A stretch of DNA of 64,000 bases, taken from NCBI RefSeq assembly GCF_031180975.1, contig NZ_JAPSLI010000001.1, positions 463,197 through 527,196 on the forward strand, written 5' to 3'. The position numbers were made by a program. Shown here piece by piece: positions 21,001-27,000 of the stretch (position 1 is the stretch's first letter; each line of letters starts with the position of its first letter). The stretch comes from Microbacterium sp. GTDB taxonomy: Bacteria > Actinomycetota > Actinomycetes > Actinomycetales > Microbacteriaceae.

Positions 21001-24000
21001 TCAGCCGCCAGGAGTGTGGCCAGTTCCGGGATCCGGGCGGCGGCGCGGACGGCATCCGCTTCGGCCCGCTCGGCGTCGGCGAGCGCGGCCGCAGCACGCT
21101 TCGCGGCCGCGATCAGGCCATGCAACCCCTCCGCCGCCCGCGCCCGGTCGCGCCGCGCGACGGCATCCGCGATATCGTCGGCCTCGGCGTCGAGCGCGGC
21201 CAGGGCCGCCCGGGAGCGGTCGCGCTCCCGTTGTGCGTGGGCACGCTCCCTGGCATCCGTCAGCGCGGTGTCAGCCGCGGCGTGCCGACGCTCGGCGACC
21301 TCTCGTTCGGCCGTGAAGCGCTCGACCTGATACTCGGCGCGAGTGATCGCGCGGCGCAGTGCGCCGAGGCGGTCCTGGGTGGTCGCGGTCGGGTCGGTCG
21401 CCCCGTCGTCTCCCCACAGTTCCGCGTCGGTGACGATCTGCTCGGCCTGTTCGAGCCGCGCATCCACGCCCGCTCGGCGTCCGCTGAGCTCCTGCTCGGC
21501 CACGCGGCGGCGCTCGTCGAAGCGCGCCTGGTGATCCGCGAACCGGCCGGTGCCGAACAGCCGCCGCAGAAGCGCCTGACGCTCCTTGCTGTCGGCGAGC
21601 AGGAAGTCGGCGAACCGGTTCTGGGCGAGCAGGATGACCTGCAGGAACTGCTCCTGGCTGAGCTGCAGAATCTCCTCGAGCTCGTTGGCCACGTCGACGA
21701 CGCGCGCGGCCCGCCCGACCCACCCGGCGTCGGTGAGCTCCTCGAGCACCGCGGACGGCGCCTGCGTGGTCATACCGCCGCCGCGTTTCGCAGGCCGCTC
21801 GTACGCGGGCGAGCGGGTCACCCGGAACCGGCCGGCGACCGTGCTGAACTCGACCGACACGGAGGTCGGGTCGTCGGGTTCGCAGTGGTCGCTGCGCAAC
21901 CGCTTCTCGCCGCCGTCGTACCGCGGCACGCCGCCGTACAGCCCGAAGCAGACGGCGTCGAGGATGCTGGACTTGCCCGCGCCGGTACGCCCGGCGATGA
22001 GGAAGATGCCGTCGTCGGCGAACGCGTCGAAGTCGACGACCTGCTTGGCGCGGAACGGTCCGAACCCCTCGACCTCGAGGCGGTGCAGCTGCATCAGACG
22101 AGCGCCTCGGCGCGCACCCGGTCGTCGAGCACCTCGTGGATCAGCTCCGCCTCGCGCTCGGTCGGTCCTTGACCGGCGCGCACGTGCTGCAGGAACGCGT
22201 CGACGCGGTCGAAATCCGTCACCGCGGTGCGCAGCCGCTGCGCGTAGGAGCGCTCGTCGGCGGCATCCGCCCCCTCGGGCTGGTGCTGCACCAGCGCGCA
22301 GTAGGGGAACCGGTCGCGCAGGCGGCGCATCGGCTCGTGCTGGGGCACGGCGTCGGTGTAGACCGCGCACACCCAGCTGTCGGCGTGCAGCGCGACGTTG
22401 GCGTCGGTGAGGATCTCGTCGAGCGTGCCGGTGAGGGTCACCAGCGGCCTCGGCACGGGAAGCGCCAGCCACGTCGTGGAGACCAGCCCGTCGGCGTCGA
22501 GCTCGACCAGCCAGGACCCGCGTTCCTTGTGCTGCTCGCCGAAGCTGTAGTGCAGCGGCGCCCCCGAATAGCGCACCCGATCGGCGAGCTGCTGCCGGCC
22601 GTGGATGTGCCCGAGGGCCACGTAGTCGGGCCCGTCGAACGCGGCGATCGGGACAAGATCGAGGCCACCCTGGCGCACCTCGCGCTCGAGCCCCACGGTG
22701 GCGTCGACGCCTGCCGCGAAGCAGTGCGCGACGGCGACCGCGCGGCCGGCGTGGGCGGCCATGCCCGCGCGGACCAGGTCCATGGCGTGGCTCATCGTCT
22801 GCGCCTGCGTCCGCAGCGCGGGGCCCTCGCCGTCGGCATCCGTCCAGTGCTGGCGGACGATCGCCGGCTCGAGGTAGGGGATGCCGAAGAAGTGCACCGG
22901 CCCGTGCTCGTCGTGCACCGTGACGGGCGTCGCGATCGCGAGCGGGTCGGTGAGGACGTGGATGCCGTCGCGCAGCAGCCCGGAGTGGAAGCCGAGCCGT
23001 GCCGCCGAGTCGTGATTGCCGCTGGTCATCACCACGGTCGCGCCCGTCTCGTGCAGCGCGAGCAGCGCCCGGTCGAGCAGCGTGTAGGCGGCCGCGGCGG
23101 GGGTGGCGGAGTCGAACACGTCACCGGCGACGACCACGACGTCGACGTCGTTCTCGCGCACCTGCTCGACGAGCACGTCGAGCACTTCGGACAGCGCCGC
23201 GAGCGTGGAGTGCCCGTGGAACGTGCGGCCGATGTGCCAGTCGGAGGTGTGCAGGATTCGCATACTCACACGGTACGGACGGCCTCCGACATCGCCTCCG
23301 AGGCGTGCCGTGCGAGGGCAGGACCGCCTCAGCGGCCGGCGAGCAGCCGCTGCTTGTCGGGGTGCCGGTCGAACCAGTCGGCGACGTACCAGCAGACCGG
23401 GATGACGCGGCGGTCGCCGCGCGCCTCGATGTCGGCGACCGCTCCCTCGACGACCAGGCCGGCGTACCCGTGGCCGCGGAACGCCGGGATGGTGAACGCG
23501 CGGGTCATGGCGATCGTGCGGCCGTCGTCGCGGTAGTCCAGGACGCTCAGCAGCACGCCGTCGCGCGTGAGGGTGTAGCGCGAGGCGTCCTTGTCGTCGG
23601 CGAGCACGAACTCGGAAGCATCAGCGGGCATCGACACGTCCCCACGTTACGCCCTGTGACACGCGCAGGATCGACACGTTTTGACACGGCGGGTCATGAT
23701 CCGAAATAATCGCCCCCATGACCACCAACGCACGCCCCATGTCCGCCCAGGAGGCGAACGGGACTGCCGGCATGATGATGGCCGGCCGCGTTGGCATGTG
23801 TTGCCGAATGTGTTGCTAAGGCGCAACCGCCCTCACCGACTCGTCCTTCCCGCCATCTGCGGGGTCTGAGTCCCGAGCACCGCACCCCGTGTGCTCGCCC
23901 CTCCACCGGCTCCGCCCGGTCATTCGTGCAACGCATTCCGAGCTCGTCGCTCGCATCCCCCAAGGACCATCATCATGTCGAACACCGCACTCCTCGAGCG

Positions 24001-27000
24001 TCCCGTCGCCGCCTCCGCCCGCAACGTCTCCACCCGCACCGCCCCCGTGCGCACCGTGCCGGTCAAGCCCGTCAGCGACCCGGCCACTGCGGATCTCCCC
24101 GCCGTCCGGTCGCCGCGCGGTTTCGCCCTCTACGTCGGCATCGACGAGATCAAGGCCGCCGAGGCCGGCGTGAGCCTGCCGCTGCTGGTCGACGCACTGC
24201 GCCGGACGCTCGCCGAGCTTGCCCCGAACGCCGAGACCCACGCCACCGTCGCCCTCGCGCCGCACGGCTCCGGCGGCCGCGACCTCGACGTCGTGCGCCT
24301 CGCCCTGCAGGAGCCGGGCGCCATCGCCCGCTCCAAGGCCGCTGCCGAGGAGGAGAAGAGCGAGGAGCCCGGCGTCGTCGTCGACATCTCCCGCAAGCGC
24401 GTGCTGCTGGATGGCGAGTCCGCCGGCTTCACCTACAAGGAGTTCGAGCTGCTGCAGTACCTGGTGCTGCGCGAGGGCAGCACGATCGAGCGCAGCGAGC
24501 TCGTCTCGGCGCTGTGGCAGGCGTCCTCCGAGGAGGAGGCACCCGGCGAGCGCACGATCGACGTGCACGTCCGCCGACTGCGCGCCAAGCTCGGCCGCCA
24601 CGAGGACATCGTGCGCACCGTGCGCGGCGTCGGCTACCGCTTCGACCGCCACGCCGACGTCGTGATCCGCTACGGTCACGGGACGCCGTCGCCCGACCGG
24701 TTCTGAACCGCGGGCCCCGGGCCGTTCCTCAGGCGTGCGGCGGTGTGCGGCGGGGTGCGCCGTTGTCGCTGTTTCTCACGTGCGCGCCAGCTTGCGGCAT
24801 CCGCGCCATCGATCGATGCAGCGGATGCCGGAAACTGCAGCGCACACGGTGCGAGGCGCGGACCGCGCACCGGCGTTGTCGGCAGGGCCGCGTAGGGTTC
24901 TTGCATGACCTTGATGGCGGATGCCGCGCAGCGGCCGGCCGGGCTCACCGGCGCTCCGCCGACAGGCGTCCGCTCCGCGCACCCGCCATCCACGGCACCG
25001 CCCAACCCCAACGATTCCGTTGCGCACACCTCTCCGCGTGAGACGGTCTACCGCCCGCGGCATCCGCTCGACCTCGACCGCACCGTCGGCGTGCTGCGCC
25101 GCGGCGGCACCGATCCCACCATGCACCGCGAGGGCTCGCGCATCTGGCTGGCCTTCCGCACCCCGTCCGGCGTCGCCACGCTCGCGCTGCGGGCTGCGAC
25201 CGGCGAGGTTCGCGCGACGGCGTGGGGGCCGGGCGCCGACGAGGCGCTGGCGTCGGTACCCCGGCTGTGCGGCGCGGACGATGATCCCACCGGGTTCGAC
25301 GCGTCCCGGCATCCGCTGATCGCCGAGACGGCACGGCGCAATCCCGGTCTGCGGCTGGCGCGCACCGACCGCGTCTTCGACGCGCTGGCGGCGTCGATCA
25401 TCGAGCAGAAGGTGACCACGATGCAGGCGTTCGGCGCCTGGCGCTCCCTCGTCACCCGCTACGGCGAGCGCGCGCCAGGGCCGGCGCCACGCGCGCTGTT
25501 CGCCGCTCCCCCGCCCGAGGTCTGGCGGCGCATCCCGTCGTGGGCGTGGCACCGCGCGGGTGTCCAGCCGCCGCAGTCCCGCACCCTCGTCGGCGCCGCC
25601 GCGCGCGGTGCGAGCGTGCAGCGCGCCGTCGCCGCGGCAGCCGACGGCCCGGCCCGAGACCGGGTGCTCACGTCCCTGCCCGGCGTGGGCGTCTGGACGG
25701 CTTCCGAGACCCGCGCGCGCTCACTCGGAGACCCGGACGCTGTGAGCGTCGGCGACTTCCACCTCGCGCATCACGTCGGCTACGCGCTCACCGGCTCCCG
25801 CACCGACGACGACGGGATGCTGGAACTGCTCGCTCCGTGGGAGGGCCACCGGCATCGGGTGATCCGCCTGATCCTGGCATCCGGCGCCACCGAGCCGCGG
25901 CGCGGCCCCCGCCTCGCCCCCGAAGACCACCGCCGCCGCTGACCGCCCGCGCCCCGTCGCCGCGCGCGCCGTGCCCGCGCGCGCCGTGCCCGCGCCGTGA
26001 GACTTCTCTTTCAGCACGAAACATGACGACTGGCGTGCTGTCTCATGTCAAAAGAGAAGTCTCGCCAGATCGCCCACCGCCACCCGCCGTGATACTTACC
26101 TTTCAGCATGAGACTTCACGACTGGCGTGCTGTCTCATGCAGAAAGAGAAGTCTCACCAGAACGTGCGCACCGCCGCGGGTCAGTAGTACACGGCCAGGG
26201 GGCCGCTCGGGCCGTCCACGACCTGCACCTCGGTGTCGAAGACGCGGCTGAGCACGGCATCCGTCATGATGTCCGCCGGGCGACCGAACTCGACGACCTG
26301 CCCGTCCTTCATGGCGCAGATGTGGTCGGCGTAATGCGCGGCGAAGTTGATGTCGTGCAGCACGATGACGATCGTGCGGCCGAGCTCCTCTGCGGCACGG
26401 CGAAGCAGCCGCATCATCTGCACGGCGTGCTTCATGTCGAGGTTGTTCAGCGGCTCGTCGAGCAGCACGACCTCGGTGTCCTGCGCGAGCACCATCGCGA
26501 CGTACGCCCGCTGCCGCTGCCCTCCCGACAGTTCGTCGAGGTACCGGCCCTCCAGCTCACCGAGGTCGAGGAAATCGATCGACCGGCTGATGATCTCCTC
26601 GTCGGCGCTGTTGAGGCGCCCCCTGTTGAGGCGCCCCCTCGAGTACGGGAACCGGCCGAAACCGACCAGCTGCCGCACCGTGACCCGGGTGATGAAGTGG
26701 TTCTCCTGCCGCAGGATGGACACGATCCGCGCCAGGTCGGCCGACTTCGTCGACGTGACGTCGTAGCCTGCGATGGCGATGCTGCCGGCATCCATCCCCA
26801 TCAGCCGGCCCATCATCGTCAGCAGCGTCGACTTGCCCGCCCCGTTCGGGCCGATGAGGGCGGTGATGCCGCCCGCCGGGATGCGCAGGTCGAGCGGACC
26901 GATCGCGACCCGGCTGCTGTAGTCACGGCGGACGCCGTCGATGGTGATCACAGCCGCCCCTTTCTGAGGATGACGATGAGGAAGACGATTCCGCCGACCA

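Follow-up and report, generated by a model that had tools for sequence, protein, structure and literature searches.

The leader peptides of the trp, his and leu attenuators are enriched in the regulatory amino acid, and in the trp and his systems the position of the ribosome decides how the RNA folds. In tnaC of Escherichia coli, the ribosome shields a Rho loading site beside the stop codon. Closest to the element considered here are the mycobacterial polycysteine small open reading frames (sORFs; Ms5788A and relatives; Canestrari et al.), which are leaderless, for which at least two consecutive Cys codons suffice, and whose 3’ end forms an exceptionally stable structure by pairing with the ribosome binding site (RBS) region of the gene that follows; under cysteine limitation this RBS-sequestering structure is relieved and downstream expression rises (10.1101/834739). 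The upstream open reading frame (uORF) of whiB7 in mycobacteria and Streptomyces has an Ala-rich composition that sets the starvation sensed, acts by a Rho-independent terminator/antiterminator, and controls a factor whose regulon restores the amino acid (PMC10274678). Here we describe a Met- and Cys-rich sORF that precedes an orphan winged helix-turn-helix (wHTH) regulator gene in Microbacterium sp., within a 64,000 nt stretch (the window; RefSeq assembly GCF_031180975.1, contig NZ_JAPSLI010000001.1, positions 463,197–527,196). Comparative sequence analysis indicates that the sORF is real, has the appearance of a translated gene and is strictly linked to the regulator. We favor, with moderate confidence, the reading that it is a translated leader that senses sulfur amino acids and gates a sulfur-free regulator.

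Like the polycysteine sORFs, the window element is predicted to be leaderless, goes uncalled by annotation pipelines and has no classical terminator. It carries consecutive Cys codons near the 3’ end of the sORF (codons 28–29 and 32–33), and the sORF is predicted to pair with the regulator initiation region through two long-range helices, H1 and H2, with such pairing significant in some clades only. Unlike the polycysteine sORFs, it belongs to a Micrococcales lineage, codes for an unrelated peptide with an invariant Cys-Arg(CGA)-Met-x-x-stop rather than a Cys tract, and precedes a transcription factor gene rather than a cysteine-metabolism operon; it is also Met codons that mask the start in the window, and the Cys codons pair further upstream. 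Judged by sequence, the element fits the polycysteine type on every testable feature except lineage, peptide, Arg(CGA)-Met, Met masking and target. It resembles whiB7 in placing a uORF, here Met/Cys-enriched, ahead of a transcription factor gene. However, the whiB7 uORF is longer and variable and its product is a WhiB-type Fe-S protein, whereas the window leader lacks a terminator, its sORF is short with an invariant core, and the factor is a sulfur-free wHTH protein. In contrast to the trp, his and leu attenuators, there is no U-tract terminator hairpin and the mRNA is predicted to be leaderless. The one feature that suggests a likeness to tnaC and Rho is the C-richness of the leader.

A conserved sORF linked to a single regulator gene

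The transcription unit lies on the plus strand of the window. A sigma-70-type promoter (23681–23710), consisting of TTGACA at 23681–86, an 18 nt spacer and AATAAT at 23705–10, has 11 of 12 consensus matches, compared with 0.1 such sites predicted from shuffled sequences. A gap of 7 nt separates the –10 box from the ATG of the sORF at 23718, and this geometry implies that the mRNA of the sORF-regulator unit starts at the sORF start codon. The 33 codon sORF (23718–23819) encodes MTTNARPMSAQEANGTAGMMMAGRVGMCCRMCC, followed by a stop codon; with 7 Met and 4 Cys, these two residues make up 33% of the peptide. A structured leader of 155 nt separates its stop from the regulator gene (23975–24706; 243 codons), which has the conserved N-terminus MSNTALLER and an initiation region (23962–23980) with a Shine-Dalgarno (SD) sequence, AAGGA, at 23962–66 and the AUG at 23975–77.

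Eighty loci encoding relatives of the regulator were compared, with one genome per species, and a sORF lies in frame upstream of the orthologous regulator at 57 of them, in both Microbacteriaceae and Micrococcaceae. The Microbacteriaceae sORFs span 25–38 codons, lie 110–260 nt before the regulator start and share the consensus MTxNARxL[ST]xxEAxGTAGMMMPGxxxMCCRMC[RAS] ahead of the stop; in Arthrobacter-type Micrococcaceae the same position is occupied by a GTG-started reading frame, VNKNSTAPAAA...RCCRMHA. By strict criteria, at least 39 of the 57 loci retain the order of –35 box, 18 nt spacer, –10 box, 5–7 nt and start codon (ATG or GTG), and the leaderless layout therefore appears conserved. 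The stop changes in identity (TGA, TAA or TAG) at a fixed position, and many third codon positions vary. For 27 gap-free sORFs of 33 codons, pN/pS is 0.65 in frame 0 versus 0.85 and 1.0 in the other frames. The regulator is kept without the sORF in Kocuria, Rothia, Nesterenkonia, Citricoccus and small-genome Microbacteriaceae.

The association also holds in the reverse direction. Metagenomes scanned with the sORF 3’ end, ATGTGYTGYCGAATGTGYNNNTRA, yielded 119 matching loci, and a regulator gene lies 130–410 nt downstream in 106 of the 107 that are informative; the remainder comprises 12 contigs too short to judge and one unrelated AT-rich chance match, leaving 118 sORF loci. The sORF is thus found exclusively as the partner of this regulator gene. 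A first-pass annotation, made from the window sequence itself, had proposed this promoter, the 33 residue sORF, a set of leader hairpins, the 155 nt spacing and the wHTH gene, all of which are found where it placed them, and the conservation of the layout and the linkage supports its idea of a leaderless sORF ahead of the regulator. The C-terminal Cys codons on which it relied recur as well, with Cys before the stop in all 57 sORF loci, and its account of the polycysteine precedent was accurate (10.1101/834739). This conserved small gene is missed by annotation pipelines and has not been described previously; literature searches returned no description of this Micrococcales module.

A single 267 nt contig from a soil metatranscriptome covers the sORF through the regulator start. 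None of the RNA runs searched contains the window, and Clavibacter-like runs consist of long, DNA-like contigs without usable 5’ ends.

Several promoter-proximal features accompany these comparisons. A direct repeat resembling GlnR-type GTnAC half-sites, TGACAC-N5-GTCAY, overlies the –35 box and spacer of Microbacteriaceae sORF promoters (23682–23697 in the window), and Micrococcaceae sORF promoters carry a GTnAC-like direct repeat, TTGTTACTTGC-N9-TTGTTACGYTGC (for example L048, ~3515–3550). The sequence TGTTACTTGC is retained even in Kocuria and Rothia, both of which lack the sORF. These repeats could reflect autoregulation or control by GlnR; a scan of the window for TGACRY-N5-GWCRY found no enrichment elsewhere in it. 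In three small-genome Microbacteriaceae (L042, L044 and L069), the regulator directly follows upp with no sORF and has a TAAAAT box ~7 nt ahead of the ATG, which raises the possibility that its mRNA is itself leaderless there. One apparent variant sORF with three CCRM copies (L129, contig Ga0326597_10433575, ~1290–1342) was rejected as an unrelated 12 nt tandem repeat: it is a perfect threefold GTGCTGCCGAAT that reads CCRMCCRMCCRMCD before a stop, sits in a lower-GC context without a promoter or the sORF N-terminus, and is probably a coincidental microsatellite.

A regulator depleted of sulfur amino acids

The nearest homologues of the regulator are Microbacterium proteins of 70–93% identity. 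Pfam identifies Trans_reg_C, an OmpR/PhoB-type DNA-binding domain, at residues 150–223 only. No receiver domain was found with Pfam or NCBIfam, in agreement with the first-pass reading of the protein, and the N-terminal ~135 residues match no receiver domain in either; NCBIfam response-regulator models align from ~residue 107 onward with scores far below their cut-offs. The best sequence matches of the DNA-binding domain are the GlnR-type structures 8hml, 8hig and 8hih (E = 3.5e-20 to 1.3e-17). The protein thus resembles GlnR-type orphan regulators of the OmpR family in this domain and in that no partner kinase gene was found near it, but the match covers the DNA-binding domain only. The N-domain forms a separate, small, Micrococcales-restricted family, with only 133 clusters recovered by an exhaustive search of 1.84 billion representatives; a word-indexed search with this domain returned mostly fragments. 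An AlphaFold2 model of the regulator (pLDDT 54) is too poor for judging its fold.

The window regulator contains no Cys, and no Met besides the initiator. This composition is shared by its relatives: the 55 orthologues preceded by a sORF have 19 internal Met and one Cys in 13,839 residues, the 120 nearest Microbacterium cluster representatives have one internal Met and no Cys in 28,911 residues (119 have neither), and 85 distinct metagenome regulators downstream of a sORF have one of each in 20,540 residues (83 have neither). As a background, every 100 residues encoded by window genes include 1.45 Met and 0.45 Cys, and orthologues in lineages without the sORF carry 0.69 Met per 100 residues. 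The combination of a leader in which Met and Cys make up one-third of the residues with a protein purged of both is what would be expected if the protein is made under sulfur amino-acid limitation. This evidence is indirect; no other argument supports the sulfur-sensing interpretation put forward at first pass as strongly. Sulfur sparing is known from cyanobacteria, yeast and E. coli, in their sulfur-starvation proteins.

An invariant Cys-Arg(CGA)-Met core

The end of the window sORF forms a candidate stall patch (23799–23816) composed of Cys28 UGU, Cys29 UGC, Arg30 CGA, Met31 AUG, Cys32 UGU and Cys33 UGC, followed by the stop. Only the Cys-Arg(CGA)-Met-x-x-stop core is common to the Microbacteriaceae and Micrococcaceae sORFs, always with two codons between Met and stop. 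At least one Cys codon immediately precedes CGA-AUG in all loci, and most have CC before Arg and a third Cys after Met; this variable Cys number means that the element is not simply ‘polycysteine’. CGA encodes the Arg at 57 of 57 loci but is otherwise rare, accounting for 5.5% of Arg codons in a set of nine genes from the window and for 3.4% across 56 regulator genes. The sORF Cys codons are mostly UGU, a codon used for none of the 17 Cys residues in window genes, all of which are UGC; the UGU preference is also explained by H2, in which the U can pair with both A and G. The strongest constraint falls on the rare, presumably slowly decoded CGA plus the AUG that follows it. To our knowledge, Cys-Arg-Met resembles no known nascent-peptide arrest motif (TnaC, SecM and SpeFL type).

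RNA pairing was considered as a source of this invariance. CAUUCG, the downstream complement of CGAAUG, is present in all 12 aligned Micrococcaceae loci, the window and several further genera have it as well, and ATTCG occurs in 24 of 57 leaders versus 4.2 in shuffled sequences. A universal downstream complement was nevertheless rejected as the cause: ATTCG is missing from many Microbacteriaceae, so pairing alone does not account for the invariance of CGAAUG, and the duplex z-scores are mostly insignificant. In loci of the Pseudolysinimonas/Lacisediminihabitans type (L011, L016, L031, L067 and the metagenome loci L107, L138, L139, L151, L192 and L194), the spacer between SD and start is AAGGAUUCGACACCAUG, in which AUUCGACA exactly complements the invariant sORF sequence UGUCGAAU; in these loci the start site could be masked directly by the Cys-Arg-Met codons. 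Within the window, another copy of the core, TGYCGAATG at 62626–34 on the minus strand, lies inside an apparent coding sequence and was counted as chance.

Leader RNA folding and start-site accessibility

The window leader folds better than its dinucleotide shuffles (z = –3.5), and across the 57 loci the region from the sORF 3’ half to the regulator start has a mean z of –1.56, with 51 loci below zero. The predicted minimum free energy (MFE) structure is dominated by long-range pairing between the sORF and the region of the regulator start. H1 comprises 14 contiguous bp between 23768–23781 (CGGCAUGAUGAUGG, codons 17–22) and 23967–23980 (CCAUCAUCAUGUCG), the latter covering the spacer, the start codon and the second codon of the regulator. 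Its 5’ strand includes the Met19-Met20-Met21 codons (AUGAUGAUG, 23772–23780), which also form the loop of a local hairpin that covaries (with a score reached by 0 of 500 shuffles). H2, a 15 bp helix over Cys, Arg and Met codons, joins 23796–23810 (AUGUGUUGC plus CGAAUG, the Met-Cys-Cys-Arg-Met codons) to 23921–23936 (CAUUCG plus GCAACGCAU), located 39–54 nt before the regulator start. H2 is kept, with some compensation, in 12 of 13 Microbacterium loci as GUGUUGY:GCARCAC, and its Micrococcaceae analogue, CGAAUGC:GCAUUCG, is found in 12 of 12 loci. CAUCAU lies within 30 nt of the regulator start in 46 of 78 loci whose sORF contains AUGAUGAUG versus 5 of 77 without it, and the position of CAUCAUCA varies by genus: it either covers the start codon or lies immediately before the SD. 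These patterns point to the Met run being at least partly an RNA-pairing element.

Between the strands of these helices, the MFE structure holds three hairpins, P0, P1 and P2, along with two short ones. P0 (23812–23827) pairs GUUGC (23812–16) with GCAAC (23823–27) and has the stop codon in its loop; close relatives have a compensated variant, GUCGC/GUGAC, at the same position. P1 (23838–23872; –15.8 kcal/mol) combines GACUCG/UGAGUC (23838–43:23867–72) with an inner UCCCGC/GCGGGG (23848–53:23859–64), and a hairpin at this position recurs across Microbacteriaceae with many different stem sequences between conserved C-rich flanks (...CGCC and CCCG). P2 (23874–23897) pairs CGAGCAC (23874–80) with GUGCUCG (23891–97) and has no U-tract after it. 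The first-pass annotation had built its switch on competition between GTTGC over the last Cys codons and GCAAC in a GGCGCAACCGCC hairpin. The hairpin (23820–31) and the competing pairing are both present, but the competition is weak, and when all loci are considered the P0 class does not outscore shuffled flanks. Long-range pairing of Met and Cys codons with the regulator start region, which is clade-specific, is predicted as the dominant switch instead. There is no terminator/antiterminator pair, and no terminator-like site occurs between 23819 and 23975. The only such site in the region is a hairpin after the regulator (24737–24766), which suggests that the unit is monocistronic. A scan of 22500–26000 against Rfam at E <= 10 gave noise only. 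RNAalifold on 40 Microbacteriaceae post-stop regions returned no structure, MAFFT having misaligned the variable-length hairpin, and was replaced by per-locus hairpin detection and z-scores.

A different arrangement is seen in a clade whose sORFs are short and have no Met run. The sequence GAAGGAUCACACCCUCAUCAUYAGAGGCCCUUCACC is highly conserved ~40–60 nt before the regulator start (L016, L020, L031, L032, L036, L046 and many metagenome loci) and forms a nested hairpin that holds an SD-like GAAGGA and an anti-SD-like CCUUC. This points to a distinct output module coupled to a shared sensor.

Ribosome occupancy was modeled by forcing ribosome-sized stretches single-stranded and recomputing the accessibility of the start site. 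In the free window RNA, the initiation region has a predicted unpaired probability of 0.22, which rises to 0.66 when a second ribosome, upstream of one on the Cys codons, also covers codons ~15–24. The Met run lies 9–10 codons, or one ribosome footprint, upstream of the Cys-Arg patch, so a queued ribosome, or one stalled on the Met codons, would free the start. For most other clades the model gives a start site that is about half accessible whichever segment is masked, and the output step there must therefore differ.

A model for sulfur amino-acid sensing and its alternatives

In the model that we favor, ribosomes would traverse the sORF and depart when Cys and Met are plentiful. On the vacated leader, the Met-Met-Met codons would pair with the regulator start region (H1), the Cys-Cys-Arg-Met codons would pair ~45 nt upstream of that start (H2), and little regulator would be made. 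When Cys-tRNA, and probably Met-tRNA, is scarce, ribosomes would dwell on the Cys-Arg(CGA)-Met patch and the Met run, and a second, queued ribosome would sit exactly on the Met run. With H1 and H2 blocked, the sulfur-free regulator, which needs initiator Met only, would be translated and its regulon turned on. Stalling itself, Cys/Met supply as the input, the sign of regulation and the identity of the regulon are what we infer in this scheme. For the window’s clade, the folding model makes the output step translational; in clades without start-site masking the output is uncertain, and action of Rho on the C-rich leader is the likely alternative. If masking by H1 is true, the effect of changing AUGAUGAUG to CUGCUGCUG should be rescued by the compensatory change of CAUCAUCAU to CAGCAGCAG.

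Several observations weigh against this model. No sulfur-metabolism genes are adjacent to the regulator in any genus inspected, and the sulfur-free composition of the protein could serve oxidation resistance instead. A plain Cys attenuator neither needs nor explains the invariant CGA and AUG, and ~10 of the 57 sORFs have a single Cys beside Arg-Met (for example Clavibacter, MSCRMSA before the stop). In the occupancy model, one ribosome with a Cys codon in its A site leaves the start closed (accessibility 0.21 vs 0.22 in free RNA). Duplexes between the sORF and the start site are significant (z < –1.64) at 10 of 57 loci, in the window’s Microbacterium clade and a few others, and most Micrococcaceae show no masking of the start site by the sORF. 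RNA pairing alone can explain the Met run, and the statistics for the co-occurrence of AUGAUGAUG and CAUCAU (odds ratio 20.7, p = 8e-13, 155 distinct loci) are phylogenetically uncorrected.

One alternative is a transcriptional output akin to that of tna, in which a stalled ribosome would shield the C-rich leader from Rho and fast termination would expose it, possibly again with Cys/Met as input. Most clades need some output other than masking, and the leaders are suited to this one in being C-rich and G-poor at 54 of 57 loci (41% C vs 24% G), in having C-rich single strands on either side of the conserved P1, in lacking an intrinsic terminator and in holding the invariant patch always two codons before the stop. 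However, the regulator coding region is C-rich too (40% vs 31%), so the leader skew is partly a property of the strand or gene, strong leader structure disfavors Rho loading, and masking by H1 and H2 is strong in the window; we regard this output as possible and tentative. It is unlikely, in our judgment, that the locus represents generic translational coupling, whereby any translation of the sORF would melt the long-range helices and the output would report the capacity for leaderless initiation or elongation. Any ribosome passing codons 15–33 would indeed open H1 and H2, rare A/U-ending codons (ACU, GCA, UGU, CGA) that would slow translation generally abound in the sORF, and the whiB7 uORF offers a precedent for reporting general translation stress (PMC10274678), yet such coupling leaves unexplained both the universal Cys beside CGA-AUG and the near-total absence of Met and Cys from ~200 regulators, which is relaxed where the sORF is missing. 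We give similarly low credence to a more elaborate version of stalling in which Cys-Arg(CGA)-Met-x-x-stop is a programmed pause or arrest module. There, the rare inosine-wobble CGA and the nascent Cys-Arg-Met near the peptidyl-transferase center would set a thiol- or Cys-tuned dwell, and the trailing ribosome of a disome, ~10 codons behind on the start-masking Met-Met-Met codons, would release the regulator, making the element a collision-based sensor read by ribosome queueing.

Met- and Cys-rich motifs are typical soft-metal ligands, and the sORF product might instead act in trans as a metal-binding or thiol-redox micropeptide that partners the regulator N-domain, for which no ligand is known. 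Amino-acid conservation over the N-terminal half within Microbacteriaceae (MTxNARxL[ST]xxEAxGTAG) would suit such a peptide; its N-terminal half is wholly different in Micrococcaceae (VNKNSTAPAAA...), where Cys-Arg-Met alone is shared, several lineages have lost the sORF yet keep the regulator, pN/pS is no lower than the 0.65 given above, and the constraint at synonymous sites (the invariant CGA and the UGU preference) is needless for peptide function. A role in trans is accordingly rated as quite improbable. Least credible of all is a non-coding RNA, whether riboswitch or protein-binding leader, with an incidental reading frame. Nucleotide-level conservation (UGUCGAAUG everywhere and GUGAACAAGAACUCAACAGCACCUGCAGCCGCAG in Arthrobacter-type loci) and the structured leader agree with it, but the reading frame is maintained, together with its start at the predicted 5’ end and the position of its stop, as stop identity and third positions vary, and there is no Rfam match within the threshold used.

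Neighboring genes and a second candidate element

The surroundings of the unit vary among genera. The GNAT and AlkA-like neighbors are syntenic only within Microbacterium and offer no functional clue, and the downstream genes differ; three of three loci inspected have a upp-like gene (uracil phosphoribosyltransferase) upstream, recognized by eye and not by domain search, and upstream reading frames of its size are present in about five further loci. In the window, the divergent minus-strand genes at 19014–23637 include SbcC/SbcD-like nuclease genes, recognized by eye, and a small GNAT acetyltransferase identified by Pfam. Downstream of the regulator are a weakly AlkA-like glycosylase gene (24905–25942, plus strand; NCBIfam score far below cut-off) and an ABC transporter ATPase with two permease genes (26181–28979, minus strand), named by eye.

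A second candidate leaderless mini-ORF occurs elsewhere in the window (49894–49926, plus strand). It starts with GTG after a TTGCAT-17-TACAGT promoter, codes for VNVCCGIHRM with consecutive Cys, and overlaps a TTGCAGGACACTCTTGGTGCAA palindrome (listed at 49927–49948) upstream of a MarR-family gene (50033–50460, plus strand). In Clavibacter and Agromyces, a similar MarR-type gene, identified by eye, stands immediately after the wHTH regulator (L014, ~4713–5375; L023, ~4684–5379), and it is preceded by a conserved stretch that translates as ECDCRTLLVQGRGP, likened by eye only to DCRTLLVQG in the window.

Implications

The first-pass annotation had presented control of a transcription factor by a uORF as new, a claim that fails on that part, since the chain of uORF, factor and regulon is established for whiB7 (PMC10274678). 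The parts that could be truly new are the invariant CGA-AUG and a possible read-out by ribosome queueing. The invariant rare CGA provides a direct way to ask whether bacterial attenuators make use of codon-specific decoding speed. If the sulfur-sensing model is true, Micrococcales, which include plant pathogens (Clavibacter) and common soil and skin genera, would wire a ribosome-based sulfur amino-acid sensor to a transcription factor rather than to single biosynthetic operons, joining a classical regulon to the ‘Cys ribulon’ concept from mycobacteria. The arrangement would illustrate a design principle in which the limiting resource is abundant in the sensor and missing from the effector, and composition alone could reveal other starvation circuits. 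For the orphan, lineage-restricted regulator family itself, the model provides a hypothesis at the level of function.

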